DNA of 32,000 nucleotides. It comes from Cupriavidus necator. GTDB taxonomy: Bacteria; Pseudomonadota; Gammaproteobacteria; Burkholderiales; Burkholderiaceae. Shown here in pieces: positions 1 through 22,412 of the stretch. How positions within the stretch are numbered: the stretch's first letter is position 1; each line of letters starts with the position of its first letter. A program made the translations under genes and the position numbers. The stretch lies in contig NZ_CP066019.1 of assembly GCF_016127575.1 (NCBI RefSeq), positions 1,860,001-1,892,000 on the forward strand, read 5' to 3'. Below the pieces are notes generated by a model. The model searched no databases. It saw only the letters and a program-made list of their open reading frames with translations, and was not told the DNA's origin.

Positions 1-274
1 AGTGGTGGTAGAAGGTGGCGACTTCATAGACCTCGGTCATCGACAGCCGCAGTTCGCTGGCCAGCGCCACCAGGTGCGGCATCGCCAGCTGGCCGTAGCG
101 GTCGTTGATGCAGTGCAGGTGTTCGATCAGCAAGTCGCGCCGGCGGGGCATGTCGCCCAGCGCCACGCGCACTTCGGCCAGCGCGGCCGCGTCTACCTGC
201 CGGCCCTTGGGCTGGCGGCGCTTGCGCTGCCGGCCGAGCCCCGTCGCCTCGAGAGGAATGACAACCTGGTTCAT
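1..274 (-). CDS. NuoE/FdsG-like [2Fe-2S] subunit of a soluble NAD-linked formate dehydrogenase-type complex, N-terminal part (runs off left edge)
   Basis: Absent from the ORF track because there is no stop in the window. Minus-strand ATG at 274..272 opens MNQVVIPLEATGLGRQRKRRQPKGRQVDAAALAEVRVALGDMPRRRDLLIEHLHCINDRYGQLAMPHLVALASELRLSMTEVYEVATFYHH. This ends in the EVxxVATFYhhF-type signature of the NuoE/24-kDa family, with high third-position GC. Confidence 0.55.
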   Translation of the reverse strand, partial: MNQVVIPLEATGLGRQRKRRQPKGRQVDAAALAEVRVALGDMPRRRDLLIEHLHCINDRYGQLAMPHLVALASELRLSMTEVYEVATFYHH

Positions 275-454: not shown

Positions 455-1774
455 TCAGGTCAGGTCTTCCGGCACGGTACGGTAGCCCATCGGTGCCGAG
501 GCATTGGCATGCACATACTTGCGGGCATGGGCCTCGCGCATCGGCTTGAGCACGAACAGCGCCATCACCGCGGTCAATGCCGCCATGCCGGAGGCCACCA
601 TGAAGACCGCATGCCAGCTGCCGGTGGCAGTGGTGATCACGCTGGAGAACGGCACCAGCAGCGCGGCCGTGCCCTTGGCGGTGTACAGCAGGCCCGCGTT
701 GGTGGCGGCAAACTTCGGCCCGAAGGTGTCGCCGCAGGTGGCAGGGAACAGGCTGTAGATCTCACCCCAGGCAAAGAACACCACGCCTGTCAGCACCACG
801 AAGGCAACCGGATGGTGGCCGTACTTGGACAGCAGCAGGATGCCGATGGCCTCGACCCCGAAGGCAAAGAACATGGTGCGTTCACGGCCGATATGATCGG
901 AGATCCAGCCGAAGAACGGGCGCGTCAGGCCATTGAGCACGCGGTCGATGGTCAGTGCGAAGGTCAGCGCCGGCAAGGTCAGGCCGAGGATCGAGATCGG
1001 GGCGTCGTGCAGGCCGAAGTCCTTGGCGATCGGGCCGAGCTGGGCGGTGGCCATCAGGCCGCCGGCGGCCATCATCACGAACATCGCGTACATGACCCAG
1101 AAGATCGGCGACTTCAGCACCTCGCGCGGCGAAGCGTTGTAGGTTGCGGCAGCCTTCAGCGTGGACTTGACCTCGCTCAGGATCTTGGCCGACGGCGGGT
1201 ACAGGGCCATGCCCAGGATGAACACGATCAGGCCCTGGCCAAGACCGAACCACAGGAACGCAGCCTCATAGCCCGAAGTCTTGATCATGTTGGCAATGGG
1301 CACCACGGTCAGCGCCGAGCCCGCGCCGAAACCGGCTGCGGTAATCCCCGCTGCCAGGCCCCGGCGATTGGGAAACCATTTCAGCGCGTTGCCCACGCAG
1401 GTGCCATACACAGCGCCCGCGCCCAGGCCGCCGATCGCCGCCGCGAAGTAAAGCATGGGCAGCGAGGACGCCACCGAGTTCAGGGCCCAGGCAATGGCGC
1501 ACAGCAGGCCGCCGCCCACCACTACCGGACGCGGGCCGTACTTGTCGACCAGATAGCCTTCAATCGGGACCAGCCAGGTTTCCGTCACGACGAAGATGGT
1601 GAAGGCCACCTGGATCGCGGTGCGGCCCCAGTGGTACTTGTCGTCGATCGGGTTGACGAACAGCGTCCAGCCGTATTGCATGTTGGCGATCATCGCCATG
1701 CAGATCACGCCGAATACCAGTTGCACCCACGGCGACGCAAAGCGCGACGTGGACTCCCTCTGCTGCAATTCCAT
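455..1774 (-). CDS. oxlT: MFS oxalate:formate antiporter family transporter (OxlT-like), copy 1
   Basis: 439-aa ORF with SD AAGGAGA 5 nt before the ATG. Has multiple TM segments and OFA-family motifs (YGWTLF, VDKYGPR, KWFPNRRGLAAG, FGRERTM) that align with my recollection of Oxalobacter OxlT. Paralogous to 13020..14363. Confidence 0.88.
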   Translation of the reverse strand: MELQQRESTSRFASPWVQLVFGVICMAMIANMQYGWTLFVNPIDDKYHWGRTAIQVAFTIFVVTETWLVPIEGYLVDKYGPRPVVVGGGLLCAIAWALNSVASSLPMLYFAAAIGGLGAGAVYGTCVGNALKWFPNRRGLAAGITAAGFGAGSALTVVPIANMIKTSGYEAAFLWFGLGQGLIVFILGMALYPPSAKILSEVKSTLKAAATYNASPREVLKSPIFWVMYAMFVMMAAGGLMATAQLGPIAKDFGLHDAPISILGLTLPALTFALTIDRVLNGLTRPFFGWISDHIGRERTMFFAFGVEAIGILLLSKYGHHPVAFVVLTGVVFFAWGEIYSLFPATCGDTFGPKFAATNAGLLYTAKGTAALLVPFSSVITTATGSWHAVFMVASGMAALTAVMALFVLKPMREAHARKYVHANASAPMGYRTVPEDLT

Positions 1775-5004: not shown

Positions 5005-5027
5005 ACAATTGATTATGGTTTCGCTAT

Positions 5028-5050
5028 GAAACTTTAATTATCGTAAATCA
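5028..5050 (+). promoter_or_regulatory. Third, weaker copy of the TTATCGT(A/T)(A/T)AT box, upstream of the CbbY-like mini-ORF
   Basis: GAAACTTTAATTATCGTAAATCA resembles AAAGTTTTTTATCGTTTAT from blocks A and B. Confidence 0.3.
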
Positions 5051-5108
5051 TCCGCGGTCCCTATGCTTGTCTCAACCCAACCGCTACAGCGCATCTGAGG
5101 AGACGAGC

Positions 5109-5414
5109 ATGAACCAGGTCCAGCAGGAAAGCAGCCAGGCTGCCATCACGGTCGGCACCGATAACCAACCCATTCCGCGCGACACCCAGCTCGCCGCCTA
5201 CAACGCCGCGTTTATCGAGCTGGGCCTGCGCTTCCGCTGGGACGCCGAGATGTATGAATGGCTGTGCGGCATCGAATGCGAGAAGGCGCGCGTGGCCCGC
5301 TATATCGAAGAACACCACGCGCACCTGCTGGCCGCCTATGACGCCGCCTTTCTGAGCGCGCTGATCTTCGAGAAGAAGAACGAATACCTGCGCGCGGTCG
5401 GTCATCTCAACTGA
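5109..5414 (+). CDS. Small (101 aa) CbbY/HAD-like remnant protein lacking the catalytic DxDG motif
   Basis: Strong SD GAGGAG 6 nt before ATG 5109 (the track ORF starts at 5067). LAAYNAAFIELGLRFRWDAEMYEWL...EKARVARYIE resembles the CbbY segment [30 protein letters not shown]. The region where DxDGT should be reads ITVGTDNQ. Followed by a terminator. Confidence 0.5.
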   Translation: MNQVQQESSQAAITVGTDNQPIPRDTQLAAYNAAFIELGLRFRWDAEMYEWLCGIECEKARVARYIEEHHAHLLAAYDAAFLSALIFEKKNEYLRAVGHLN

Positions 5415-5431
5415 AGGGCCGCTCGGTTCAC

Positions 5432-5461
5432 GGCGAGGCGCGCGAGCGGCCTCGCCTTTTT
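5432..5461 (+). terminator. Rho-independent terminator
   Basis: GGCGAGGC (5432..5439) pairs with GCCTCGCC (5449..5456), followed by TTTTT. Confidence 0.6.
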
Positions 5462-5479
5462 GCCTGGCCCGCATGTCCC

Positions 5480-5797
5480 TCAGGCGAGGTCGGCCTCCGC
5501 TGCCTTACCTGCGGGGCGGGGCAGCCGTTTGATGCGCTTGCGCGGCCTTTGCGCCGCGACCCAGAGGTCGTATGCCATCTGCATGCCGCCCCACATCTCG
5601 CGGCTCGCGCCCAGGGCTCCTTCCAGGCGAATGGCAATATCCGGCGTGATCGATGCATGACCATTCAGGATGCGCGAGAGCGTTGCGCGCGTCACGCTGA
5701 TGTGCGCGGCGAACGCCGTAATGGTCATATCGTCCATGCCAGCGAGCCAATCGGCCAGCACCGCGCCGGGGTGCGGCGGGTTGTGCATGCGCGTCAT
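5480..5797 (-). CDS. higA: HigA-family antitoxin (Xre-type HTH)
   Basis: Internal ATG at 5797 of the 195-aa track ORF gives MTRMHNPPHPGAVLADWLAGMDDMTITAFAAHISVTRATLSRILNGHASITPDIAIRLEGALG, a typical HigA/VapI N-terminus. It starts 11 nt after the reconstructed higB stop. Confidence 0.8.
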   Translation of the reverse strand: MTRMHNPPHPGAVLADWLAGMDDMTITAFAAHISVTRATLSRILNGHASITPDIAIRLEGALGASREMWGGMQMAYDLWVAAQRPRKRIKRLPRPAGKAAEADLA

Positions 5798-5808
5798 GAT
5801 GAAGTCCT

Positions 5809-6086
5809 TCAGTGGTAGTCCTGGTAATCGACGACGATGACGTCGATGCCGTCGAACATGAATGTCAGCCGCCAGTTGCCATTGACGCTGACAGACCAGG
5901 GCCGGACATGTCGCCGCCCAGTTGATGCAGCTTCCAACCTGGCACCCCCATGTCCCGGGGTCTCGTGGCGTGATCCAGCGCACCGAGCTGATTGCGCAAT
6001 CTCTGCGCGTGATGCGGCTGGATTCCCGCCTTGGAGCCAGTCTCGAAGAAACGTTTGAGGCCCGCATGGGCGAAACTCTTGATCAT
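5809..6086 (-). pseudogene. higB: HigB-family toxin gene with a 1-nt frameshift
   Basis: MIKSFAHAGLKRFFETGSKAGIQPHHAQRLRNQLGALD...WKLHQLGGDMSGP then leaves frame. The adjacent frame reads WSVSVNGNWRLTFMFDGIDVIVVDYQDYH* with its stop at 5809..5811. The span is 278 nt (not a multiple of 3). The shift maps to the G/C run CCAGGGCC at 5897..5904. Confidence 0.65.
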
Positions 6087-6951: not shown

Positions 6952-8529
6952 TCAGGCCACCTGCCTCTCCTGGCCGCCCCAGTAGCGGCCGCGGATGGCC
7001 TTGCGGTCGATCTTGCCCAGCGCGGTCAGCGGCAGCTCATCCACGAACACCACCTGCTTGGGCGCATTGACCACGCCCTTGTGCTGCGTCACGTGGCCGA
7101 TCACGTCGGCCTCGGTAAGCGCGGCACCGGGCCGTGCCACGACCACGGCGGTGACCGCCTCGCCCCACTTGGGGTCGGGGATGCCGATCACCGCGGACAT
7201 GGCGATGGCCGGGTGCAGCGCCAGGCAATGCTCCACCTCGCTCGGGTACACGTTGAAGCCGCCGCTGATGATCATGTCCTTGGCGCGGTCGACGATGTAC
7301 AGGAAGCCCTCGCTGTCGCAACGGGCCATGTCGCCGGTATGCAGCCAGTCGCCGGCAAAGACCTTGGCGTCTTCCTCGGGCCGGTTCAGGTAGCCTTCCA
7401 TCACCAGCGGACCGCGCACGCACAGCTCGCCCACCTCGCCCGGCGCGACTTCACGCAGGTCGGGGTCCAGCAGCTTGACCTGGTTGCCCGGGATCACCTT
7501 GCCGCACGAGCGCAGGCGCTCGGGGTTGTCCGGATCGTGGTCGCGCTGGCTCAGGTAGCTGATGCACATCGGCACTTCAGCCTGGCCATAGACCTGTCCG
7601 AACACCGGGCCGATGCGGCGCAGCGCGTCAGCGAGACGCACCGGCGCGATCGGCGCCGCGCCGTAGAGCACCAGCTCCAGGCTGGACAGGTCGGCCGCGT
7701 CCAGCCCGTCGCAATCGAGCAGGCCATAGATCTGCGTGGGCACCAAAAAGGTCAGGTTGATCCGTTGTTCGGCCACGCGTCGCAGGAAATCGGCGGGACT
7801 GAACTTGTCGCACACGTAGATGGTGCCGCCGCGCAGCAGCGTCGGCAGGAACAGGCTGCCGGACGCATGCGAGATCGGCGTGGTCACCAGATAGCGGATC
7901 TGCGCCGGCCATTCGTAGCTGGCCAGCATGTACTGCAGCACCGTCACCGTGGTCCGGTGCGTATGCAGGATGCCCTTGGAACGGCCAGTGGTGCCGCCGG
8001 TATAGGCCAGCCGGCTGATTTCCGTGGGGTCGTCGCCGGGAACCACGGGCGTGTCATCGAACGCAGCCGCCGCATTGGCCAGGCCAGGCCCGAACTCGCC
8101 ATCGTCCAGCGGCAGGACCTGCAGGCCGGCGCCAGCTGCCAGCACGCGCGCGCGCTCGGTGAAGCGGGCGTTGTCCACCACCAGCGCCCGCACCCCGGCA
8201 TCCTGCAGCACGAAGGCGTGATCCGCTTCCGATGCCATCGGATGCAGCGACACATTCTTCAGCCCGGCCAGCTGCGCGGCGATGATGGCGGCGACCGCTT
8301 CGGCGCGGTTGCCCACCAGGAAGGCCACGGCATCCTGGCGCGCCAGGCCGCGGGCGGCAAACAGCCGCGCGACGCGCGCGCACTGCCGCGCGAGCGCCTC
8401 ATAGCTCAGCGTGGTGTCGTCGCCGACGATGGCGGGCACGCCGGGCCTGGCACGCAGCGCGGCCGCATAGAGCTGGCCCACCGTAGCGCCGCCATGGACT
8501 ACCGCAGCGGCCGAAGCTTGACGGCTCAT
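6952..8529 (-). CDS. AMP-dependent acyl-CoA synthetase/ligase
   Basis: 525-aa ORF with SD GAGGAGA. Has the AMP-binding motif YTGGTTGRSKG, then GELCVRGP, WLHTGD and the C-terminal GKIDRK. Confidence 0.88.
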   Translation of the reverse strand: MSRQASAAAVVHGGATVGQLYAAALRARPGVPAIVGDDTTLSYEALARQCARVARLFAARGLARQDAVAFLVGNRAEAVAAIIAAQLAGLKNVSLHPMASEADHAFVLQDAGVRALVVDNARFTERARVLAAGAGLQVLPLDDGEFGPGLANAAAAFDDTPVVPGDDPTEISRLAYTGGTTGRSKGILHTHRTTVTVLQYMLASYEWPAQIRYLVTTPISHASGSLFLPTLLRGGTIYVCDKFSPADFLRRVAEQRINLTFLVPTQIYGLLDCDGLDAADLSSLELVLYGAAPIAPVRLADALRRIGPVFGQVYGQAEVPMCISYLSQRDHDPDNPERLRSCGKVIPGNQVKLLDPDLREVAPGEVGELCVRGPLVMEGYLNRPEEDAKVFAGDWLHTGDMARCDSEGFLYIVDRAKDMIISGGFNVYPSEVEHCLALHPAIAMSAVIGIPDPKWGEAVTAVVVARPGAALTEADVIGHVTQHKGVVNAPKQVVFVDELPLTALGKIDRKAIRGRYWGGQERQVA

Positions 8530-8808: not shown

Positions 8809-9246
8809 TCAGGCCTGTTCCTTGACCTGGTTTTCCAGCTCCACCAGCCGCTTCTTCAGCGCCCGCTCCTCCTGGAAGCGCACGGTCTCGTCGCGGATCA
8901 CGGCGACGATGCCGGTGATGGCGCCCGCATCATCCTTGAGCAGCGCCACGGTGAAGGCGATCGACATGGCCTTGCCGTCCTTGTCGACCGCGGGCACCTT
9001 GAGCAGGTCGTGGCCGTAGCGCGTGATGCCGGTCGCCATGGTCTTGCCGTAGCCCTCCCAGTGCCGCCCGCGCAGGCGCTCAGGGATGATCAGGTCGAGC
9101 GACTTGCCCATGGCCTCGGCCTGGGTAAAGCCGAACATGCGCTCGGCGGCGGGATTCCATAGCGTGATGGCGCCCTTGGCGTCGGAGATGATGATGGCGT
9201 CGCCGATGGCGGACACCAGTTGCGCGTAATCGATCTGGTCTGTCAT
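8809..9246 (-). CDS. Stand-alone PAS-domain protein with a C-terminal coiled coil (FixL-like PAS)
   Basis: ATG 9246 with SD GAGGGA (the track ORF starts at 9330). ITLWNPAAERMFGFTQAEAMGKSLDLIIPERLRGRHWEGYGKTMATG parallels the FixL heme-PAS stretch FGY...G.[23 protein letters not shown]. No output domain. Confidence 0.75.
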   Translation of the reverse strand: MTDQIDYAQLVSAIGDAIIISDAKGAITLWNPAAERMFGFTQAEAMGKSLDLIIPERLRGRHWEGYGKTMATGITRYGHDLLKVPAVDKDGKAMSIAFTVALLKDDAGAITGIVAVIRDETVRFQEERALKKRLVELENQVKEQA

Positions 9247-9401: not shown

Positions 9402-10652
9402 TCAGATCACCTGGGACTCGCGCAGGCGCTTGATGTCGTCCGCGCCGTAGCCCAGGCCGGCCAGCACCTCTTCGCTATGCTCGCCCAGCAGTGGCGACCC
9501 GGTGATCTCCGGCTTGAGGTCGGAGAACTTGATCGGGCTGCCCACCGTCAGGTAGGTACCGCGCTCCTTGTGCGGCACCTCGGTGATGCTGCCGCTGGCG
9601 CGCAGCGACGGATCGGCGGCGATTTCCTTCATCGACAGCACCGGCGAGCACGGGATGTCGAACTTGCGCAGGATGTCCACGGCCTCGTACTTGGTCTTGT
9701 CGGCCAGCCATTCCTCGATGGTGTTGAAGATATCGAAGATATGCGGCTGGCGAGCCTTGGCGGTGGCGTAGTTGGGATCGGAAATCCATTCCGGCTTGCC
9801 CAGCGCCTTGCAGATCGGCTCCCAGGCATGGCCCTGGATGGTGAAGTAGATATAGGCGTTGGGGTCGGTTTCCCACCCCTTGCACTTCAGCACCCAGCCC
9901 GGCTGGCCGCCGCCGCCCGCGTTGCCGCCGCGCGGCACCACGTCGCTGAAGCTGCCGTGCGGATACTGCGGGTACTCCTCCAGGTAGCCCAGGCGGTCCA
10001 GGCGCTGCTGGTCGCGCAGCTTGACCCGGCACAGGTTCAGCACCGCATCCTGCATCGACACAGCCACCTTCTGGCCCTTGCCGGTCTTGTCGCGGCCGAT
10101 CAGCGCGGTGAGGATGCCGATGGCCAGGTGCATGCCGGTGTTGGAATCGCCCAGCGCCGCGGCGGACACCGTCGGCGGGCCATCCCAGAAGCCGGTGGTC
10201 GAGGCCGCGCCGCCGGCGCACTGGGCCACGTTCTCGTAGACCTTCAGGTCTTCATAGTGGTGGCCGTCGCTGAAGCCCTTGACCGAAGCCACGATCATCT
10301 TCGGGTTCAGTTCGTTGATGCGTTCCCACGAGAACCCCATGCGGTCCAGCGCGCCCGGGCCGAAGTTCTCGACCAGCACGTCCGACTCGCGGATCAGCTG
10401 CTCCAGGATCTTCTTGCCTTCCGGCTTCTTGGTATCCAGCGTCAGGCTGCGCTTGTTGCTGTTGAGCATGGTGAAGTACAGGGCATCGACATCCGGGATG
10501 TCGCGCAGCTGGGTGCGCGTCACGTCGCCGGAACCGGGGCGCTCGACCTTGATCACGTCCGCACCGAACCACGCGAGAAGCTGCGTGCAGGCGGGACCGG
10601 CCTGGACGTGCGTGAAGTCGATGATCTTGATGCCGTTGAGTGGGAGGTTCAC
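9402..10652 (-). CDS. frc: Formyl-CoA:oxalate CoA-transferase
   Basis: 416 aa, GTG start with SD AGGAGAA. Near-colinear with my recollection of O. formigenes Frc ([74 protein letters not shown]). Confidence 0.92.
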
Positions 10653-10694: not shown

Positions 10695-12434
10695 TTACTT
10701 CTTGGCCGAGCTTTGCGGATTCAGATTGGTCAGACGACCGCTTTCCGTGCCAGCAGCCGGATCGATGACAGCGTTGACCAGCGTGGGCTTGCCCGAGCGC
10801 AGGGCTTCGTTCACCGCAGCCTCGAGTTCCGCCGGCGTGGTGACGTTGCGGCCGACGCCACCGAACGCTTCCATCATCTTGTCGTAGCGCGCGCCCGGGA
10901 CGAACGTCGTGACCGCCGGATCCTTGCCGCCGGTCGGATTCACGTCGATGCCCTTGTAGACGCCGTTGTTGTTGAAAATGACGATGCAGACCGGCAGGTT
11001 GTAACGGCAGATCGTCTCGACTTCCATGCCCGAGAAACCGAACGCACTGTCACCGCACAGCGCCAGCACCGGCTTGCTGGTCTCGACCGCCGCGGCGACC
11101 GCGTAGCCCATGCCCACGCCCATCACGCCCCAGGTGCCTACGTCCAGGCGCTTGCGCGGCTCGTACATGTCGATCACGGCACGGGCGTAGTCCAGCGTGT
11201 TGGCGCCTTCGTTGACGAACGAGATGCCCGGGTTGGCCTTGACCACATCCTTCAGCACGTTCAGCGCGCCGTGGAAGTTCATCGGCGAGACATCCTTGGA
11301 CCTGGCCAGGGTCTCGGCCATCTTCGCCAGGTTCGTGTCCCTGCGGTCGGCCACCGCGTTCAGCCACTCGGCGCCCGGCTTGGCAAAGTCATTGCCGACC
11401 TTGTCGAGGATCGCCGACACGCACGAACCAATGTCACCCACTACCGGCGCGGCGATGGCGACGTTGCTGTCCATCTCGGTCGCCGCGATGTCGATCTGGA
11501 TGAATTGCTTCGGCTTGCCCCAGGTCTTGCCCTTGCCATGCGACAGCAGCCAGTTCAGGCGGGCGCCGACCAGCAACACCACGTCAGCTTCAGCCAGCAC
11601 ATACGAGCGTGCGGCCGAGGCCGATTGCGGATGCGTATCGGGCAGCAGGCCCTTGGCCATCGACATCGGCAGGTACGGAATGCCCGTCTTCTCGACCAGC
11701 GTGCGGATATCCGCTTCGGCGCGTGCGTACGCGGCACCCTTGCCCAGCAGGATCAGCGGGCGCTTGGCGCTCTTCAGCAGCGCGACGGCACGGTCGATCG
11801 AGTCCGGTGCAGGCAGTTGGCGCGGGGCCGGATCCACCACCTTGATCAGCGACTTGCGGCCCTTCTCGGCTTCCATCGACTGGCCCAGCAGCTTGGCCGG
11901 CAGGTCCAGGTACACACCGCCCGGACGGCCCGACACGGCGGCACGAATGGCACGCGCAATCCCGACACCAATGTCTTCAGCGTGCAGCACGCGGAAGGCA
12001 GCCTTGGCGTGCGGACGGGCGATGGCCAGCTGGTCCATCTCTTCGTAGTCACCCTGCTGCAAATCGACGATCTCGCGCTCGCTCGAGCCGCTGATCAGGA
12101 TCATCGGGAAGCAGTTGGTGGTCGCATGCGCCAGCGCCGTCAGCCCGTTCAGGAAGCCCGGCGCAGAAACGGTCAGGCAAACGCCCGGCTTTTGGGTGAG
12201 AAAGCCGGCAATCGCTGCTGCGTTGCCTGCGTTCTGCTCGTGACGGAAGCTGATGACGCGCATGCCGTTGGCCTGTGCCAGACGGGCCAGATCGGTGACC
12301 GGAATGCCGGGCAGACCGTAGATGTTCTCGATGCCGTTCAGCTTCAGCGCGTCGATGACCAGATGAAAACCATCGGTTTGTGCCTGATGTTCTTCCGTGG
12401 CGTGACGCTGCAGTTCGTTTCCGACTTCTGCCAT
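10695..12434 (-). CDS. oxc: Oxalyl-CoA decarboxylase (ThDP-dependent)
   Basis: 579 aa with SD GAAGGAA. Has the ThDP-enzyme architecture and the [27 protein letters not shown] ThDP motif. Sits 42 nt upstream of frc. Confidence 0.9.
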
Positions 12435-12657
12435 GGTTGATTCCTTCTATACAAATTGACTGGGGTTGGAATTCTTCTAATTCAGGGTGTCTTCCGCGTG
12501 GTGCTCCCGACCCGCTTGGCTTCGACGACTTCGGACATGTCTTGGTCTCCTCGTTGAACTCTTTACGGGGCGGGGCACTCTCGCCTTCTCGCCCTTCGCT
12601 GTTGCTACCCGTATGCCTTGCGGCGCCCGATCGTTTCACTCGATCTTGATGACATAC

Positions 12658-12673
12658 GGTATGTGATATATCA
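12658..12673 (-). promoter_or_regulatory. Box 3 (16/16), about 223 nt upstream of the oxc ATG
   Basis: Read directly. Embedded in a 32-nt stretch (12645..12676) identical to 19963..19994. Confidence 0.7.
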
Positions 12674-12849
12674 GAACGAAGCAAGAAGAATTTCCCCTAG
12701 CCCTTCAAGTTTCGTGGATGCGGCGCAGCAATTTTGCAGGCAATTACGGCTAAATCAGCGTAATTTCTGAAAGCACGCGATTCATGCGCAATCGGCACAG
12801 ATTTCCGGGCCATGTCGAAGCCTGGAAATCTCGCCGGGATTACGCATGA

Positions 12850-12865
12850 AGATATACTACATACC
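12850..12865 (+). promoter_or_regulatory. Box 8, degenerate and inverted (AGATATACTACATACC, 13/16)
   Basis: Read directly. Opposite orientation to box 3, with centres about 192 bp apart. Confidence 0.35.
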
Positions 12866-13019: not shown

Positions 13020-14363
13020 TTACTCCCCCTGACGCGGCGAAATGCCAGCCAGGAACGCGGTGTCGGACACGCGCACTGCCTCGGCATGCCCGGTGATAAA
13101 GCGCTTGCGCACGGGCGCCAGCAACACCTTGGCCGAGATCCCTGCCGCAATCGTCACCACCGCCGCCACCGAGAACACGGCTCCCCAGCCGCCATGCGCC
13201 GACAGGATCGATGCCAGCGGCACCACCATCGCCGCCGTGCCCTTCGCCGTGTACAGGGTGCCGGCATTGGCCGCGGCGAATTTGCTGCCGAAGGTATCGG
13301 CGCACAAGGCCGGGAAAATCGAGAAGATCTCGCCCCAGAACAGGAAGGTCAGCGCCGCGAAGAACATGAACCAGTACGGGTTGTGCCCCATCTGCATCAG
13401 CCCGAGCAGCGCCAGCCCCTCGCCGACGAAGATCACGAACATGGTGTTCTCGCGCCCGAACTTGTCCGACAGGAAACCGCACAAGGGCCGCGTAAAGCCA
13501 TTGCACAGGTTGTCGATCGACAAGGTCATGGTCAGCAGCGGCAGCGTCATGCCCAGCATCGTCACCGGCATCGAGGCGAAGCCATAGTCCTTGGCGATGG
13601 GCCCGAGCTGCGCCGTCGCCATGATCCCCCCCGCCGCCACCGCGACAAAGCTCACGTAGATCAGCCAGAACACCGGCGTCTTCACCATCTGCCCCGGCGA
13701 GAACTCGACCGGGTTGGTCAGTACCGCCTTGGCCGCCACCGCGCCCTTGGGCGGCCTGGGCTTCACCAGCAGCAGTGCCAGCACGAAGATGCACACGCCC
13801 TGCAGGATGCCGAAGGTCAGGAAGGCCTTTTCATAGCCCGAGCTCTGGATCATGTTGGCGATGGGGATCACCGTAATGGCCGCGCCCGCGCCGAAACCCG
13901 CCGCCGTCAGTCCGGCCGCGAGGCCGCGCTTGTCCGGGAACCACTTCAGCGCGTTGCCGACGCAGGTCCCATAGACACCGCCCGCGCCGATGCCGGCAAT
14001 CACCGCGGCCGCATACAGTTCCGGCAGCGTGGTCGCATAGGCATTCATCACCCATGCCAGGCCCGCGCAGATCGCCCCGCCCGCCACTACCGGGCGCGGG
14101 CCAAACTTGTCCACCAGCCAGCCCTCCAGCGGCACCAGCCAGGTTTCCGTCACGATGAAAATGGAGAATGCCACCTGGATGGCGGACGCGCCCCAGTGAT
14201 GCTTGGCGTCCATCGGTGACACGAAGAGGGTCCAGCCGTATTGCAAATTCGCCACCAGCCCCATGCACACCACGCCAATTGCAAGCTGGATCCAACGGTT
14301 CTGCAGGCCGCGCCCGTTCACGTTGCCGTGACCGGCCGGGGCCGATACTTCAAATTGCGCCAT
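13020..14363 (-). CDS. oxlT: MFS oxalate:formate antiporter family transporter (OxlT-like), copy 2
   Basis: 447 aa with SD AGGAGA. Same OFA-family motifs as copy 1 (YGWTLF, VDKFGPR, KWFPDKRGLAAG, FGRENTM). Confidence 0.88.
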   Translation of the reverse strand: MAQFEVSAPAGHGNVNGRGLQNRWIQLAIGVVCMGLVANLQYGWTLFVSPMDAKHHWGASAIQVAFSIFIVTETWLVPLEGWLVDKFGPRPVVAGGAICAGLAWVMNAYATTLPELYAAAVIAGIGAGGVYGTCVGNALKWFPDKRGLAAGLTAAGFGAGAAITVIPIANMIQSSGYEKAFLTFGILQGVCIFVLALLLVKPRPPKGAVAAKAVLTNPVEFSPGQMVKTPVFWLIYVSFVAVAAGGIMATAQLGPIAKDYGFASMPVTMLGMTLPLLTMTLSIDNLCNGFTRPLCGFLSDKFGRENTMFVIFVGEGLALLGLMQMGHNPYWFMFFAALTFLFWGEIFSIFPALCADTFGSKFAAANAGTLYTAKGTAAMVVPLASILSAHGGWGAVFSVAAVVTIAAGISAKVLLAPVRKRFITGHAEAVRVSDTAFLAGISPRQGE

Positions 14364-14614: not shown

Positions 14615-14660
14615 CAACAAAAGCCACCGCCGCCCCGACAAACGCGGGGCGGCGGTGGCT
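14615..14660 (-). terminator. Rho-independent terminator after pntB
   Basis: Near-perfect hairpin GCCACCGCCGCCCCG / CGGGGCGGCGGTGGC (14623..14659). On the minus strand it is followed by TTTTGTTG. Confidence 0.75.
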
Positions 14661-14707
14661 TCGCGGCCGCCTGAACTGCTCAGCTTGGAGACCTCGACTC
14701 GACCAAC

Positions 14708-16105
14708 TCAGGCCGGCGCTTCCTCCAGCTGCCTCAGCAGGGCATCGACACTGCCCTTGGCGTCGCCGAACCACATCCGCGTGTTGTCCTTGTAGAACAA
14801 CGGGTTGTCCACGCCCGCATAGCCCGCCGCCATGCTGCGCTTGGACACCACCACGGTGCGGGCCTTCCAGACTTCCAGCACCGGCATGCCGGCAATGGGG
14901 CTGCCCGGGTCTTCCAGCGCACCGGGGTTGACGATGTCGTTGGCGCCCACCACCAGCACCACGTCGGCCTTCTCGAAGTCGTCGTTGATCTCTTCCATCT
15001 CCAGCACGATGTCGTACGGCACGCGCGCCTCGGCCAGCAGCACGTTCATGTGCCCGGGCAGGCGGCCTGCGACCGGGTGGATGCCGAAGCGCACGGTGAC
15101 GCCCTGCGCCCGCAGCCGCCGCGCGATCTCGCTGATGGTGCCCTGCGCCTGCGCCACCGCCATGCCGTAGCCCGGCACGATGATCACGTCGCTGGCGTCC
15201 TTGAGCAGGTTGCCGACTTCCTCGCTGGACACCGGCAGCACCTCGCCCTGCTCGGTCGCCGCGCCCTGTGCCTGCACCGCGCCGAAGCCGCCCAGGATCA
15301 CCGACAGGAACTTGCGGTTCATCGCCTTGCACATGATGTAGCTGAGGATGGCGCCGCTCGATCCCACCAGCGCCCCGGTGATGATCAGCAGGTCGTTGCC
15401 CAGCATGAAGCCGGTGGCCGCCGCGGCCCAGCCGGAGTAGCTGTTGAGCATCGAAACCACCACCGGCATGTCGGCGCCGCCGATGGCCAGCACCAGGTGC
15501 GCGCCGACCAGCAGCGCAATCACCGTCATCGCCGCCAGCGGCACCAGCCCCTGCTGCGCGTCGGGCGCGCTCAGGAAGGCATAGCCCAGCCACACGCAAA
15601 CCAGCAGCGCGATGGCATTCAAGGCATGCCGCCCGGGCAGCAGCATCGGCTTGCCGCCCATGGTGCCCTGCAGCTTCAGGAAGGCGATGATCGAGCCCGT
15701 GAACGTGACCGCGCCGATCAGGATGCCAAGGTAGGTTTCCACTTCATGGATGGCCTTCTCCGCGCCGGTCAGCGCATGGCTATCCAGGTAGTTGGCATAA
15801 CCCACCAGCACCGCGGCCAGGCCGACGAAGCTGTGCAGCACCGCCACCAACTGCGGCATCTGCGTCATTTCCACGCGCCTGGCCAGCATGGCACCGGCGA
15901 TGCCGCCCACCAGCATCGCGCCGATGATGATGGCGATGCCGTCCGGGCTGCCCGCCAGCACGGTGGTCAGCACCGCGATCACCATGCCGGCGATGCCCAG
16001 CAGGTTGCCGCGGCGCGCGGTGCCGGGGTGGCTCAGCCCGCTCAGGCTGAGGATGAAGAGCGCGCTGGCGCCCAGGTAAGCGATATTGCTGATTCCGGAT
16101 GGCAT
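14708..16105 (-). CDS. pntB: NAD(P) transhydrogenase subunit beta
   Basis: 465 aa with an N-terminal polytopic membrane domain and a C-terminal dIII NADP(H) domain ([44 protein letters not shown]). Confidence 0.92.
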
Positions 16106-16121
16106 CCCTGTCTCCCCGTCT

Positions 16122-17684
16122 CTAGTCCCGCTGGAACATCTTGAGCATGCGCTGCGTCACCAGGAAGCCGCCGGCGATATTGATGGTGGCCAGCAGCACC
16201 GCGCTGCCGGCAATCACCGCCGTCAGCAGCGACGGCTTGCCCAGCTGCACCAGCGCGCCCACCACGATGATCCCGCTGATGGCATTGGTCACGCTCATCA
16301 GTGGCGTATGCAGCGCGGCGGTGACGTTCCACACCACCTGGTAGCCGACAAAGATCGCCAGCACGAACACCGTGAAATGCGCCATGAAGGCCGGCGGCGC
16401 GACCGCGCCCAGGCCCAGCAGCGCCGCCGCCGCGATGGCCAGCGCGATCAGCGTCGCGCCGGTGCGGCTGCGCGGCGGCTCGGCCTCGGCCTGCACCGGC
16501 GGCGGCGCGGCCGGCGCCTGCTGCTGCGGGATCGCCACCGTCAGCGGCGGCGGTGGCCAGGTCACCGTGCCCTGGTGCAGCACCGTGGCACCGCGGATCA
16601 TCTCGTCGTCCATGTCGACCACGAGCTGGCCGTCCTTGCCCGGCGTCAGCTCCGTCAGCAGGTGGCGGATATTGGTGCCATAGAGCTGGCTGGCCTGCGC
16701 CGCCATGCGGCTGGGCAGGTCGGTGTAGCCGATGATGGTGACGCCGTGCTGCCGCACCGCCTCGCCCGGAACGGTCAGCACGCAGTTGCCGCCCTGCTCA
16801 GCAGCCAGGTCGACCACCACGCTGCCGGCGCGCATCAGGCCCACCGTGCCGGCCTCGAGCAGCTTGGGAGCGGGCCTGCCCGGGATCAGCGCGGTGGTGA
16901 TGATGATGTCGACCTCGCGCGCCTGTTCGGCAAAGAGACGCATCTCGGCTTCGATAAAGGCCGGGCTCATCTCCTTGGCATAGCCGCCGCTGCCGCTGCC
17001 GTCCTCTTCGATCTCGACGGTCAGGAACTCGGCGCCCAGGCTTTCGATCTGCTGGCGCACCACCGGCCGCGTATCGAAGGCGCGCACCACCGCACCCAGG
17101 CTGCGCGCCGCGCCGATGGCCGCCAGCCCCGCCACGCCCGCGCCGATCACCAGCACGCGCGCCGGCGGGATCTTGCCCGCGGCCGTGATCTGCCCGGCAA
17201 AGGGCCGCCCGAACGCATGCGCGGCTTCGATCACCGCGCGGTAGCCCGCCATATTGGCCATCGAGCTGAGCGCGTCCAGCTTCTGCGCGCGCGAGATGCG
17301 CGGCACGCAGTCCATCGCCAGCACGGTTGCGCCGCGCTGCGTCAGCCGCTCCAGCATCGCCATCTGCTGCGCCGGCCAGACAAAGCCGATCAGCGTGGCA
17401 TGCTTCTTCAGCAGCGCCGCCTCTTCCACGCCCAGGCTGGGATGGACCTGCGGCGGGCGCACCTTGATCACCACATCGACCGAAGCCCACAGGCTGGCCG
17501 CGTCGACAATGGCCGCACCGGCGGCGCTGTAGTCAGCGTCGGAGAACGACGCTTCCTGGCCGGCGCCGGTCTCCACCACCACCTGGTAGCCCAGCTTGAG
17601 CAGTTCCCTGACCGAGTCGGGCGTGGCGGCAACGCGCCGCTCGCCCGGGTGGACTTCGCGTGGCACACCGATCGTCATTGGCAT
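16122..17684 (-). CDS. pntA: NAD(P) transhydrogenase subunit alpha (fused dI + dII-N)
   Basis: Start chosen at [11 protein letters not shown] (ATG 17684; ATG 17678 is also possible), whereas the track ORF starts at 17783 and overlaps the upstream gene. Has the Ala-dehydrogenase-like dI fold ([14 protein letters not shown]) and C-terminal TM helices. Confidence 0.9.
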
Positions 17685-17721
17685 GGCATTCACCGTTTTA
17701 TGGAAGGAATCAGGCGCCGGC

Positions 17722-18504
17722 TCAGCCGCGCACGTGGTTGACCAGCGAGCCGATGCCCGCGATCGCCACCTCGACCACCGCACCGTCCTTCATCGACCCC
17801 ACGCCGATCGAGGTGCCGCACGCAATCACGTCGCCGGGCATCAGCGTCAGGTCCTGCGAGATCCGGCTGACCTGTTCCTCGGGCGAGAAGACCATGTCCG
17901 ACAGCGGGTAGTTCTGCCGCTCGACGCCATCGAGCCGCGTGATGACGCTGGCGGCTTTCCAGTTGAAGCCGCAGACAATGGCCGGGCCGATGCAGCCGAA
18001 GGTGTCGAAGCCCTTGGCGCGCGTCCACTGCGGGAAGTTGGGGTCGGCCGTGATCAGCTCGGCCGCGGTCACGTCGTTGACGACGGTGTAGCCAAAGATA
18101 TGCGCGCCGGCCTCGGCCACCGACACATTGCGCGCCTTGCTGCCGATCACGATGCCCAGCTCGCCCTCATAGACGATCTTGCCGTCGTAGCTCTTGGGGC
18201 GCAGCACGGCATCGCCCGGCCCGGCCAGCGACGAGGCCGGCTTGAGCAGGAACAGCGGATGCGTGGGCACGGGCTTTTCCAGCTTGCGCGCGAGTGCGTG
18301 GAAGTTGTTCCACAGTGCCACCACCTTGCCCGGCGCACAGGGCGCGAGCAGCGTCAGCGACGCGCGCTCATGCACGGCGCCGGTGGGGGCGGGGTCGTTG
18401 AAACCGTCGCCGTCATATTCGACGACACGGTTGCCATCGGCTTCGTCGATGCGGCCATGGCCGATGCTGCCGTCAGCGCGGCGAAAGCGTATCCAGGTTT
18501 GCAC
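17722..18504 (-). CDS. Fumarylacetoacetate hydrolase (FAH)-family protein, substrate unknown
   Basis: 260 aa, GTG start 6 nt after SD AAGGAG. FAH-fold motifs are present ([33 protein letters not shown]-like [11 protein letters not shown]). Confidence 0.85.
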
Positions 18505-18602
18505 AGCATGCTCCTTGCGCAGGCAAAGCGGGCCCTGCCTGCTCCGATGTCGGTTGCAGGATCTTGGAAGAAATGGGATCGTGGGCGGCTCGCGCCCGGA
18601 TT

Positions 18603-18630
18603 CGTCATTCCCGCACAGGCGGGAATGACG
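18603..18630. repeat. Perfect 12-bp-stem palindrome (REP-like) between frc2 and the FAH gene
   Basis: CGTCATTCCCGC acag GCGGGAATGACG, with no U-tract on either strand. Confidence 0.6.
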
Positions 18631-18641
18631 TCAGGCTTGCG

Positions 18642-19874
18642 TCATACCGCGCCGGCCAGCTTCATCGCGGCGATCTGCGCGGGCGAGCGCCCCAGCCACT
18701 CGAGAATCTCTTCGGTATGCTCGCCCAGCAGCGGCGAACGCTCGATCTCCACCGGCGATGCCGAGAGCGTGATCGGGCAGCCCAGCTGCACGTAGCTGCC
18801 GCGCTGCGGGTGCTCCAGCGCCTTCAGGTAGCCGCGCTGGTACAGCGACTCGTCCTCGATCAGGTCCTTCATCGACAGGATCGGGCCGCACGGAACATCG
18901 ACCTCGTTGAGCGCCGCCATCACGTCGAACTTGCTGCGGCCACCGGTCCATTTCTCGATCACGGCGAAGCAGTCGGCCAGGTGCTTGAGGCGTGCTTCTG
19001 GCGTGGCGTAGTCCGGATTGGTGATCAGGTCCTCGCGCCCGCACAGGCGCATCAGCGGCTCCCAGCCTTGCGGCTGGATGATGACGTAGACATAGTCGTT
19101 GGGGCCGCCCGGCGCGCAGCGCAGCGCCGCGCCCGGCTGGCCGCCGCCCGAGGCATTGCCGGCGCGCGGCACGTGGTCGCCGAACTCTTCGTTCGGGTAC
19201 TCGCGCAGCGGGCCGTTGGCCAGGCGCTGCTGGTCGCGCAGCTTGACGCGGCACAGGTTCAGCACCGCGTCCTGCATCGCCACTTCCACGCGCTGGCCGC
19301 GGCCGGTGTGCTCGCGCTGCAGCAGCGCGGCCAGGATGCCGACCACGCAATGCACGCCCGTGCCCGAATCACCGATCTGCGCGCCGGTGACAGTGGGCAC
19401 GCCCTCGGCATCGCCCGTGGTGGAGGCCGAACCGCCCATGCACTGGGCCACGTTCTCATACGCCTTGCAGTCCGCGTACGGCCCCGGGCCGAAGCCCTTG
19501 ATCGAGGCATAGACCAGCCGCGGGTTCAGGTCCTGCAGGTGGTCCCAGTCAAAGCCCGCGCGCTCGAGCACGCCCGGCCCGAAGTTCTCGATCAGCACGT
19601 CGCTGCGCTGGACCAGGTCTTCGAGCAGCGCCTTGCCTTCGGGCGTCTTCATGTTCAGCGTCAGGCTGCGCTTGTTGCTGTTGAGCATGGTGAAGTACAG
19701 GCTGTCGGCATTGGGCACGTCGCGCAGCTGGCTGCGGGTGATGTCCCCGCGGCCGGGCATTTCCACCTTGATCACGTCCGCGCCCAGCCACGCCATCAGC
19801 TGCGTGGCCGAGGGGCCCGCCTGGACGTGGGTCATGTCCAGGATGCGAACGCCTTGCAGTGCCTTGGTTTCCAT
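18642..19874 (-). CDS. Formyl-CoA transferase paralogue (class III CoA-transferase)
   Basis: I place the start at [25 protein letters not shown] (ATG 19874, SD GGAGA). The track ORF start at 19973 would overlap box 4. Colinear with Frc but divergent in the central insertion ([27 protein letters not shown]). Confidence 0.85.
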
Positions 19875-19975
19875 TTCGGATGTCTCCTCGGACGATGGTT
19901 TCACTTGTATATGGTCTGTTCCTGGTGCTCGGCGCGTACTCGCTCGCGTCCGTTCCGGCCCTCTTGATGACATAC

Positions 19976-19991
19976 GGTATGTGATATATCA
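19976..19991 (-). promoter_or_regulatory. Box 4 (16/16), about 101 nt upstream of the frc2 ATG
   Basis: Read directly. Confidence 0.7.
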
Positions 19992-20124
19992 GAAGAGAGC
20001 AAGAGGAGTTTGCCCGATGCAACACAAATTTCGACGATGCAATGCAGCAATCGGCCTGCTTTGCTTGCCCGAAGTGGGAAACCCAGTGAAATCCCGAATC
20101 AGTCAGCCAGCATCTTTTTCGCAT

Positions 20125-20140
20125 TGATATATCACATACC
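20125..20140 (+). promoter_or_regulatory. Box 5 (16/16), inverted relative to box 4
   Basis: TGATATATCACATACC on the plus strand. Centres of boxes 4 and 5 are about 149 bp apart. It lies between the frc2 promoter and the gntR terminator. Confidence 0.6.
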
Positions 20141-20174: not shown

Positions 20175-20212
20175 TACAAAAGCAAAACGGCGGACCAAGG
20201 TCCGCCGTTTTG
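20175..20212 (-). terminator. Rho-independent terminator after the GntR gene
   Basis: AAAACGGCGGA ccaagg TCCGCCGTTTT. The minus strand continues with TTTTGCTTTTG. Confidence 0.75.
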
Positions 20213-20232
20213 CCGCCCTACCCCGCCCGCCT

Positions 20233-20952
20233 TCAGTCGAGGAAGTCGCAGTGCCGTTCCACGTAGTCAGCCAGATCCAGCGAATGCTGCCGCACCAGCC
20301 GCTCGGCCAGCTCGGTATCGCGTTTCTCCAGCGCCTCGATGATGCGCAGGTGGTCCACGATGGAGCGTGCCGCCCGGTCGCTCTGCGAGATCGTCATCTT
20401 CCGGATCGCGCGCACGTGGATAAAGATATTGCGGATCGTGTCCATGATGATGTGCGACTTGGACAGCTGCACGATCGCCTGGTGGAAGGCGATATTGGCG
20501 TCGGAATACTCTTCGATATGCTCGGCCGGAGTGGAATCGCGGAAGCTGTCGAACATGCTGCGCAGCTGCGCGATCTCGGCATCGGTGGCGTTCTCGGTGG
20601 CCAGCCGCGCGGCCATGCTTTCCAGCGCGGCCCACATCTGGATCATCTCCACGATCTCGCGCTTGGTCTTGCGCATGATGTAGATGCCGCGCCGGGGCAC
20701 GGTGCGCAGGAAGCCCTCCTGCTCCAGCAGCGTCATGGCTTCGCGGATGGGCGTGCGGCTGACACCCATGGCCTCGCTCAGTACCCGCTCATCGAGGCGG
20801 ATCTCGTCGCGCGACTGGTAGATGTCAGCGTCGGCGATGGCCTGGCGCAACATGGCGTAGGCCTGGTCGCGCAGGCTCGCGCCGGCATTGATCGGTTGCA
20901 CGGACAAGGCCAGCCCGTTGGGCTGGACGATGGATTGGCTTTGCGCAGACAT
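20233..20952 (-). CDS. GntR-family regulator, FadR subfamily (wHTH + FCD domain); candidate regulator of the 16-nt box
   Basis: Start preferred at MSAQSQ (ATG 20952); the track uses GTG 21015. HTH is LDERVLSEAMGVSRTPIREAMTLLEQEGFL, and the all-helical FCD-type C-terminus carries conserved His residues (FHQAIV, DHLRII). Confidence 0.85.
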   Translation of the reverse strand: MSAQSQSIVQPNGLALSVQPINAGASLRDQAYAMLRQAIADADIYQSRDEIRLDERVLSEAMGVSRTPIREAMTLLEQEGFLRTVPRRGIYIMRKTKREIVEMIQMWAALESMAARLATENATDAEIAQLRSMFDSFRDSTPAEHIEEYSDANIAFHQAIVQLSKSHIIMDTIRNIFIHVRAIRKMTISQSDRAARSIVDHLRIIEALEKRDTELAERLVRQHSLDLADYVERHCDFLD

Positions 20953-21104: not shown

Positions 21105-21120
21105 CGTATATGGTATATCA
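21105..21120 (-). promoter_or_regulatory. Box 6 (CGTATATGGTATATCA, 13/16), about 153 nt upstream of the GntR gene
   Basis: Read directly. Same orientation as boxes 1-4. Confidence 0.45.
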
Positions 21121-21228: not shown

Positions 21229-22206
21229 TCAGGCGGCCAGCTTGGCCATCGTGTCGCGCTGCTTGATCAGACCCAGCACGGCATCGCACATCGGCGTGGG
21301 CTGCGCGACCAGACGTCCCATTTCCTGCACCACGGTCAGCAGCGGGTCGATTTCCATGGCCCGCCCGGCCTCCAGGTCCTGCAGCATCGAGGTCTTGTGC
21401 GCGCCCACGGCACCGGCGCCGTCGATGCGCCGCTCCACGTCGACGCGGAATTTCACCCCGAAGCGCTCGGCGATGCCCTGCGCCTCAACCATCATCTGGC
21501 GCGACAGCGCCCGCGTGGCCGGGTCGGCGGTGATGACGTCGAGCGTGGCATGCGTGAGCGCGCTGATCGGGTTGAAGCACAGGTTGCCCCACAGCTTGAG
21601 CCAGATCTCGTCGCGGATATTGTCGCGCACCGGGGCGTCCAGGTCGGCGGCCATCATCATTTCGCTGAGCCGGGTCACGCGCGCCGAGCGGCTGCCATCC
21701 GGCTCGCCCAGCGGAAACTTCTTGCCGTAGACGTGCTTGATCACGCCCGGCGCAACGATCTCAGCCGCGGGATAGACCACGCAGCCGATCGCCCGCTCCG
21801 GCCCCAGGCCCTTCCATTGGCGCCCGCCGGGATCGACGCTTTCCAGCGTGCTGCCGGCCAAGTCGCCGCCATGCTTGTAGAAATACCAGTACGGAATGCC
21901 GTTGACGCCGGTGACGACCGCGGTTTCCGGCCCCAGCAGCGGCTGCATCTGGTCCACCACGCCCGGCACGGAATGCGCCTTGAGGGTGATGAACACATAG
22001 TCCTGGTGTCCGAGCTCGCGCGGATCGCTGGTGCAGCGCACCTTGGCCACGCGCTCCTCGCCGTCGATCAGCAGCCTGACACCATGTTCCTGCATTGCCG
22101 CGAGATGGGGGCCGCGCGCGACGAAGCTGACCTCCGCCCCCGCGCGCGCCAGCTGCGCCCCGACATAGCCGCCGATCGCGCCTGCGCCGTAGATACACAC
22201 TTTCAT
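21229..22206 (-). CDS. Ketopantoate reductase (PanE/ApbA)-family oxidoreductase; candidate oxalyl-CoA reductase
   Basis: 325 aa. Has an N-terminal Rossmann motif (MKVCIYGAGAIGGYVGAQLARAG) and the PanE C-terminal helical domain (KTSMLQDLE.GR..EID). Confidence 0.8.
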   Translation of the reverse strand: MKVCIYGAGAIGGYVGAQLARAGAEVSFVARGPHLAAMQEHGVRLLIDGEERVAKVRCTSDPRELGHQDYVFITLKAHSVPGVVDQMQPLLGPETAVVTGVNGIPYWYFYKHGGDLAGSTLESVDPGGRQWKGLGPERAIGCVVYPAAEIVAPGVIKHVYGKKFPLGEPDGSRSARVTRLSEMMMAADLDAPVRDNIRDEIWLKLWGNLCFNPISALTHATLDVITADPATRALSRQMMVEAQGIAERFGVKFRVDVERRIDGAGAVGAHKTSMLQDLEAGRAMEIDPLLTVVQEMGRLVAQPTPMCDAVLGLIKQRDTMAKLAA

Positions 22207-22239: not shown

Positions 22240-22255
22240 TGATATATCACATACT
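22240..22255 (+). promoter_or_regulatory. Box 7 (TGATATATCACATACT, 15/16) in the panE-like / terC divergent intergenic region
   Basis: Read directly. It lies about 33 nt from the panE-like ATG and 158 nt from the terC ATG. Confidence 0.55.
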
Positions 22256-22412
22256 ATATTCCATCGAGGCGCATGGCAACCGCGTAGAACAACCTTTATC
22301 TTTCCGGATCACACGGCGCGGGCAAGCGGCGCTGCGCTAACATGACGCCTGCATGTGCCCCGGGCGGACCACCGTCCGGCGCCGAGTTGCAACCTGACAC
22401 CCGGAGCCCCCC

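Follow-up and report, generated by a model that had tools for sequence, protein, structure and literature searches.

Why should the genes of a membrane transhydrogenase lie at the end of a string of oxalate genes? The question is raised by a stretch of 32,000 nucleotides of Cupriavidus necator (contig NZ_CP066019.1 of assembly GCF_016127575.1, positions 1,860,001 to 1,892,000 of the forward strand; hereafter the window, whose own numbering is used throughout), in which pntA and pntB follow a paralogue of the formyl-CoA:oxalate CoA-transferase gene (frc2) and a gene for an FAH-family enzyme. Oxalate is the most oxidised two-carbon substrate, and PntAB uses the proton gradient to push NADH + NADP+ towards NADPH, the direction in which it is driven in respiring cells. 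An initial annotation of this DNA had proposed that PntAB was recruited here to convert formate-derived NADH into NADPH for the reduction of oxalyl-CoA. That proposal is supported by the present sequence analysis, in which every computational test able to refute it came out in its favour, and comparative genomics suggests that a conversion of NADH to NADPH is the best explanation of the arrangement. The four genes and the elements that bound or separate them are as follows, with locus tags assigned by position and anchored on the tags in the supplement of PMC7486775.

18642..19874, minus strand: frc2 (H16_B1717), formyl-CoA:oxalate CoA-transferase paralogue, first gene in the unit (TIGR03253, Pfam CoA_transf_3)
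17722..18504, minus strand: FAH-family gene (H16_B1716; Pfam FAA_hydrolase and Rv2993c-like_N)
16122..17684, minus strand: pntA (H16_B1715), transhydrogenase alpha subunit, dI domain and four transmembrane helices (NF006942, Pfam)
14708..16105, minus strand: pntB (H16_B1714), transhydrogenase beta subunit (NF006974, Pfam PNTB)
14620..14662, minus strand: intrinsic terminator closing the unit, 18-bp stem with 14 G-C pairs and a T-rich tail
20176..20213, minus strand: terminator-like hairpin and T-run after the GntR gene, setting that gene apart from frc2 (read from the sequence: GCAAAACGGCGGACC..GGTCCGCCGTTTTGC TTTTGT)
18604..18629, minus strand: perfect hairpin resembling a repetitive extragenic palindrome (REP), in the frc2-FAH gap, without a T-tract, in only some strains

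The coordinates of the four genes agree with the gene calls in GenBank AM260480.1 (chromosome 2 of C. necator H16), which encodes the frc2 protein identically at about 1.94-1.96 Mb, and family models bear out the identities and positions given in the initial annotation. The frc2 product reaches 628 bits with the TIGR03253 oxalate_frc equivalog (cut-off 504), whereas its score of 187 bits with the YfdE-type CoA:oxalate transferase model lies below the cut-off of 522; it is 55% identical to the product of frc1, the other frc gene in the window, and pairwise alignment finds GDS and GGGQ motifs in both. We take GDS to be the catalytic Asp motif and GGGQ the glycine loop, with residue roles after the Frc of O. 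formigenes. PntA scores 799 bits with the NF006942 equivalog (cut-off 383) and contains AlaDh_PNT_N (PF05222), AlaDh_PNT_C (PF01262) and PNTB_4TM (PF12769), while PntB passes NF006974 narrowly (692 bits, cut-off 689) and is spanned by Pfam PNTB (PF02233) over residues 2-455 of 456. The FAH-family protein matches PF01557 (FAA_hydrolase) over its full length (1-214/214, E 3.5e-59) and presents an E113-x-E115, D144, K164 pattern, presumably the metal ligands if FAHD1 is the guide. Membership in a characterised subfamily (HpaG/HpcE, rhamnonate hydrolase, or the FAHD1/Cg1458 oxaloacetate decarboxylases) was rejected, the best equivalogs reaching 116 bits of a required 276 and 113 of 500; the nearest solved structures are HpcE/Cg1458-like (E 1e-36 to 1e-39), and the best match in the PDB is an uncharacterised protein (E 5e-39).

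All four genes are on the minus strand, with gaps of 137 nt (frc2-FAH), 37 nt (FAH-pntA) and 16 nt (pntA-pntB). The strong terminator that had been noted behind pntB is present at 14662-14620, 46 nt after the gene. The gaps of the unit contain no box of the kind described below; a consensus scan, which is weak evidence, found no terminator-like or promoter-like site in them, and an Rfam scan of the whole window returned no known RNA element. Because the genes are co-directional and closely spaced, with terminators on the flanks, no internal terminator found and an order conserved elsewhere, frc2-FAH-pntA-pntB most likely constitutes one transcription unit, as judged from its sequence. The frc2-FAH gap (18505-18641) has an RNA folding z of -3.18. 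Its REP-like hairpin (GTCATTCCCGC...GCGGGAATGAC) was ruled out as a conserved regulatory element, being an insertion found in only some strains. In all Cupriavidus loci examined (L005-L051) a second, GC-rich hairpin, whose sequence varies by clade, adjoins the ribosome-binding site of FAH, and the hairpins of this gap may serve as elements of mRNA processing, stability or translation.

The unit is connected to the rest of the oxalate genes by a palindromic box, ATGTGATATATCA, which is half of the palindrome GTATGTGATATATCACATAC. When up to two mismatches are allowed, the window holds seven distinct sites, compared with 0.10 expected from shuffled sequences; they lie at 1883 (before an OxlT-type gene), 2746 (before a 72-codon open reading frame, ORF), 12661 (oxc), 19979 and 20125 (frc2), 21108 (the GntR gene) and 22240 (apbA2). 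The sites and the candidate regulator that matter most for the unit are these.

20125..20140, minus strand: distal box GGTATGTGATATATCA upstream of frc2 (box match 20125-20137), kept in orthologous loci
19962..19994, minus strand: proximal box block TTCTGATATATCACATACCGTATGTCATCAAGA upstream of frc2 (box match 19979-19994)
22240..22279, minus strand: promoter-like site of apbA2, TTGCCA-17-TAGTAT, whose -10 is overlapped by the box at 22240-22252
20233..20952, minus strand: gene of an FCD-type GntR regulator (H16_B1718), candidate box-binding protein (Pfam GntR, PF00392, and FCD, PF07729)

The box that had been proposed upstream of the unit is real, and two sites lie there, at 19979-19994 and 20125-20137. 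The frc2 and oxc promoters have a common core of about 95 nt and, inside it, the same box block of 33 nt (12644-12676 before oxc), and each carries an additional distal site, that of oxc being more degenerate (about 12848-12865); the two sites of each main promoter lie roughly 146 and 188 bp apart. The PanE-family gene apbA2 is likewise preceded by a box, as had been claimed, and the promoter-like match that this box overlaps is the only sigma-70-like match in the region. The GntR gene is preceded by a degenerate box of its own (21108-21120) and adjoins frc2 orthologues even in Alphaproteobacteria, and the adjacent FCD-type GntR protein is the likeliest box-binding protein to be proposed from these sequences. 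With the FadR/FCD subfamily of GntR regulators it has in common the winged-helix and FCD domains, and the putative operator is an A/T-rich palindrome that overlaps promoters, with a further site before the regulator gene; the arrangement differs from such systems in having two sites on each of two main promoters. Box positions are constant across Cupriavidus, including C. oxalaticus, and the box also occurs in Pandoraea and P. xenovorans. In the related genomes the box or a variant stands at the head of the gene string or at positions like those in H16, and never between frc2 and pntA.

Two small ORFs lie beside these sites. The 5' leader of oxc contains an 18-codon ORF (12482-12538, minus strand; MSEVVEAKRVGSTTRKTP*), perhaps a relic or a leader peptide. 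When the two promoters are aligned, the ribosome-binding site and start codon of this ORF fall opposite the start of frc2, and the oxc and frc2 promoter regions therefore look like a duplication. The 72-codon ORF (2454-2672, minus strand) would encode a small hydrophobic protein (MEVALLFALGLGLIAAGAG...), has a GGAG ribosome-binding site and lies just downstream of the perfect box at 2746-2758. It is also a called gene in the H16 record and matches no family; in Pandoraea, Paraburkholderia terricola and P. xenovorans the GntR gene has a similar ORF of 67-74 codons in its vicinity.

How constant the arrangement is was assessed in 75 frc2 loci, one genome per species, by mapping the proteins of the window onto each. 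FAH lies downstream of frc2 in 43 of the 75, and pntA-pntB follow FAH directly in 18 of these 43, which belong to the C. necator clade, several other Cupriavidus species and one Pandoraea metagenome-assembled genome. Look-ups that started from PntA and FAH homologues placed FAH-pntA-pntB inside the oxalate strings of Pandoraea thiooxydans, Paraburkholderia terricola, Trinickia, Cupriavidus sp. D39, C. oxalaticus and Caballeronia. In five genera of the Burkholderiaceae (Cupriavidus, Pandoraea, Paraburkholderia, Trinickia and Caballeronia) the gene before FAH-pntA-pntB is either a small PAS gene or one for an Frc paralogue, and the synteny check called for in the initial annotation came out in its favour. 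The FAH-pntA gap ranges from 1 to 85 nt over the five genera, with 1 nt in Paraburkholderia and Trinickia. The order in Caballeronia is oxc-frc-PAS-FAH-pntA-pntB-apbA2, and the ApbA2 orthologue there is 79% identical to that of the window, with a start only 17 nt past the stop codon of pntB.

Neither of two stronger generalisations held. As a universal member of the cluster pntAB was ruled out, since 24 of 42 loci with FAH and every alphaproteobacterial frc2 locus lack it; one group, with C. pauculus and C. plantarum among its species, has a box and oxc-frc1 immediately after frc2-FAH. It was likewise ruled out that all close relatives of this PntA are linked to oxalate. The closest PntAB relatives outside oxalate clusters stand in a NiFe-hydrogenase/hyp cluster or beside fae, folD, glycerate kinase and formamidase genes (L087, L088/L089), which suggests that the same PntAB lineage has repeatedly been recruited to modules with H2 or C1 compounds as reductant. 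Additionally, a thiamine pyrophosphate (TPP) enzyme only 26-29% identical to Oxc is encoded behind the box in the C. gilardii group, Pandoraea thiooxydans and Cupriavidus sp. D39, with an Frc-type gene after it (L029, 7949-9976; L080, 5857-7611; L084, about 4224-5795). The only copy scanned, that of L029, finds its best families in an acetolactate synthase model and in 2-hydroxyacyl-CoA lyase (HACL), both below cut-off, and the C. gilardii group string also has an ADP-forming acyl-CoA ligase gene before FAH. The HACL-like enzyme may serve in place of Oxc as oxalyl-CoA decarboxylase or belong to a 2-hydroxyacyl-CoA pathway, in either case controlled by the same regulator.

The proposed role of the transhydrogenase depends on the remaining oxalate genes of the window.

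21229..22206, minus strand: apbA2 (H16_B1719), PanE-family probable oxalyl-CoA reductase (NF005089, 541 bits; PF02558 and PF08546)
10695..12434, minus strand: oxc (H16_B1712), oxalyl-CoA decarboxylase (TIGR03254, 1046 bits)
9402..10652, minus strand: frc1 (H16_B1711; Pfam CoA_transf_3; tag from the PMC7486775 supplement)
13020..14363, minus strand: OxlT-type oxalate/formate antiporter gene between pntB and oxc (TIGR04259, 663 bits, cut-off 335)
455..1774, minus strand: second OxlT-type antiporter gene (TIGR04259, 630 bits), with a box at 1883-1900 upstream and NAD-type formate dehydrogenase genes downstream
2..274, minus strand: 5' end of a NuoE/NuoF-type (FdsG/FdsB-like) formate dehydrogenase subunit gene, continued in the full genome

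The piece at 1..274 had been called an FdsG-like gene; the assignment to formate dehydrogenase stood, but the piece is really the 5' end (274..2, minus strand) of a longer gene, which in the full genome encodes a 569-aa protein of NuoE+NuoF type and is followed by the gene of a 938-aa molybdopterin subunit. Soluble formate dehydrogenases of the NuoE/NuoF type reduce NAD+, and from their sequences the two subunits together look like an NAD-type enzyme. In ApbA2, Arg31 is placed after strand beta-2, the position at which an Arg of ketopantoate reductases contacts the 2'-phosphate of NADPH, and so the residue fits NADPH binding. Two OxlT-type antiporter genes, oxc, two frc genes, the NAD-type formate dehydrogenase genes, pntAB and apbA2 are all associated with the box, which therefore precedes genes for uptake, activation, decarboxylation, formate oxidation, transhydrogenation and a PanE-type reductase.

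These components can be combined in one mechanism. The frc2-FAH-pntA-pntB unit would be transcribed, as one oxalate-induced transcript, from a promoter under the neighbouring GntR regulator H16_B1718, acting through the palindromic operator, and the same operator would serve oxc-frc1, apbA2, the regulator gene, and the OxlT-like gene with the NAD-type formate dehydrogenase genes. On oxalate, nearly all reducing power would arrive as NADH through the oxidation of formate, and assimilation through oxalyl-CoA reductase would require NADPH; co-expressed, proton-driven PntAB would move hydride from NADH to NADP+, feeding ApbA2 and biosynthesis generally. What we infer in this chain is co-transcription, induction by oxalate, the identity of the box-binding protein, the direction of PntAB and the preference of ApbA2 for NADPH. 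Taken as a whole, an operon under GntR/box control with PntAB supplying NADPH for ApbA2 and biosynthesis is, in our judgement, modestly probable.

The pathway logic is that of Methylobacterium extorquens, in which oxalyl-CoA has two fates, decarboxylation to formyl-CoA and reduction to glyoxylate; a 2012 study of PanE2 reportedly established a PanE-family enzyme as the reductase of this alternative route. Both PanE2 and the acylating glyoxylate dehydrogenase (EC 1.2.1.17) of Pseudomonas (Cupriavidus) oxalaticus use NADP(H), and we know of no operon or regulon link between M. extorquens PanE2 and a transhydrogenase. The PntAB of E. coli, with an alpha subunit of about 510 aa and a beta subunit of about 462 aa, has the same two-subunit architecture. 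In E. coli the two genes make up an operon of their own; unlike them, the pntAB genes of the window form the distal end of a catabolic gene string with a putative pathway-specific operator. The frc-oxc(-oxlT) clusters of Oxalobacter, E. coli (yfdXWUVE), lactobacilli and Paraburkholderia phytofirmans PsJN have oxc, frc and an OxlT-type transporter in common with the window, and the PsJN oxalate cluster has been described as three genes only (PMC3886118).

For H16 itself, two parts of the scheme are already published, namely ApbA2 as a PanE2 homologue and the need for frc-oxc during growth on oxalate. ApbA2 was found by BLAST with M. extorquens PanE2 (51% identity), deletion of apbA2 slowed growth on oxalate, with a doubling time of 10 h in place of 6.5 h, and a strain deleted for frc-oxc (H16_B1711-1712) did not grow on this substrate (PMC7486775). 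The initial annotation had cited PanE2 as a reported oxalyl-CoA reductase and pointed to this PanE-family gene, rightly in view of these results. The same paper (Claassens et al. 2020) does not mention pntAB, frc2, FAH, the GntR regulator or the box, the word 'NADPH' occurs 0 times in its text, and ApbA2 is proposed in it to run oxidatively during growth on glycolate. A 2024 review describes the regulation of oxalate genes as understudied and names neither a GntR regulator nor a transhydrogenase (PMC13409138). A literature search that left most subscription journals outside its reach, so that an earlier description is possible, found no publication linking pntAB or a transhydrogenase to oxalate genes and H16_B1714-B1719 in no main text, in line with the statement of the initial annotation that a regulon-level coupling was undescribed. 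What appears new is the placement of pntAB and an FAH enzyme in a conserved, box-associated oxalate module, together with a candidate regulator and a putative operator.

It should be noted that several observations weigh against the mechanism as set out. Many of the 24 (of 42) frc2-FAH loci with enough downstream sequence that are without pntAB retain apbA2 and its box; it is FAH, to which the model gives no role, and not apbA2 that shows the tightest link to pntA; the strong RNA structure of the frc2-FAH gap could attenuate or process the transcript; and in P. xenovorans GntR-frc-FAH is followed by a 221-aa ORF (L093, 9918-10583) with a weak PNTB match and no pntA, as if the transhydrogenase genes were decaying in that lineage. 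Since H16 carries further pnt loci on chromosome 1 (PMC5649130; PMC7486775 supplement), this pntAB copy may be redundant. A rival reading makes PntAB a general source of NADPH for all biosynthesis, called for whenever reductant enters only as NADH, with no specific tie to oxalyl-CoA reductase. The presence of PntA homologues 67-69% identical in other NADH-generating, H2 or C1 modules (NiFe-hydrogenase/hyp; the fae, folD neighbourhood) would be expected under general supply, as would the many Cupriavidus species in which apbA2 and the box are retained but no pntAB lies nearby, and no apbA gene was found in the sequence around pntAB in the Paraburkholderia terricola and Trinickia clusters. But the position of apbA2 directly after pntB in Caballeronia, and a box common to apbA2 in Cupriavidus and Pandoraea, speak for the reductase as a partner, and general supply without that tie seems somewhat unlikely, with the reservation that it overlaps with the ApbA2-specific account and is hard to tell apart from it.

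The tight association of pntA with FAH could also mean that the partner of PntAB is the FAH enzyme with the Frc paralogue, in a separate branch that needs or produces NADPH (one candidate being an oxaloacetate decarboxylase or acylpyruvase step tied to glyoxylate or 2-hydroxyacyl-CoA metabolism), oxalyl-CoA reduction being incidental. FAH-pntA is the tightest and most constant junction in all five genera, frc2-FAH is far more widespread than pntAB (43 of 75 loci), the box stands before an HACL-like TPP enzyme and not a true oxc in Pandoraea, Cupriavidus sp. D39 and the C. gilardii group, and the string of that group includes the ADP-forming acyl-CoA ligase. Yet frc2 scores as a true Frc equivalog, FAH is kept in 24 loci that have no pntAB, and FAH-family enzymes use no pyridine nucleotide and hence would have no direct need of PntAB; on these grounds such a branch appears quite improbable as the reason for the arrangement. 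Nor do the order conserved over five genera despite rearranged flanks and the gaps of down to 1 nt and 17 nt sit well with an adjacency of little physiological meaning, in which pntAB would have its own promoter inside FAH or in the frc2-FAH gap. The structured 137-nt frc2-FAH gap could conceal a promoter or processing site, but the consensus scan found no promoter-like site in the gaps. A reversed PntAB, acting as a valve for NADPH from glyoxylate oxidation by ApbA2 on glycolate, would take up the oxidative direction proposed for that enzyme (PMC7486775), and the redundant pnt loci of H16 would accord with either version. Both versions are very improbable, the reversed one having against it that the proton-motive force of respiring cells drives PntAB towards NADPH.

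A broader form of the preferred reading would treat the conserved Frc paralogue-FAH-PntA-PntB string, with ApbA2 added in Caballeronia, as a distinct 'assimilatory and redox' module of Burkholderiaceae oxalotrophy, with FAH performing an unrecognised oxalate or glyoxylate step and the HACL-like TPP enzyme replacing the classical Oxc in some lineages. FAH might decarboxylate or tautomerise oxaloacetate and so close a glyoxylate-oxidising dicarboxylate cycle, or it might remove a 2,4-dioxo-acid by-product. We consider this broader form unlikely and offer it as speculation.

Should the NADPH-supply reading be true, a transhydrogenase within the oxalate regulon would show how users of oxalate solve the mismatch between NADH, which they obtain from formate, and NADPH, which assimilation requires. 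For oxalate genes, which reviews call understudied in their regulation, the analysis also offers a candidate regulator and operator, and it brings to notice a conserved FAH-family enzyme without an assigned role. For the engineering of C. necator on CO2-derived formate or oxalate, H16_B1714 to B1718 may be considered candidates for NADPH supply and oxalate-inducible expression.

Further features of the window concern the surroundings of oxc-frc1. Downstream of this pair and co-directional with it are a PAS-domain gene and an acyl-CoA ligase gene (6952-8529 and 8809-9246, both minus strand), the ligase being FadD8-like at a score below cut-off; it could be an oxalate-CoA ligase. The order of PAS and ligase genes after oxc-frc1 is also found in C. 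oxalaticus, and in Paraburkholderia and Trinickia the stand-alone PAS gene stands between the two frc genes. A HigA-type antitoxin gene and an adjacent ORF without a family (5480-6067 and 5061-5474, both minus strand), together with two LysR genes and a TetR gene, divide the oxalate island into two halves, and the LysR genes keep their place beside an OxlT-type gene in many genomes.

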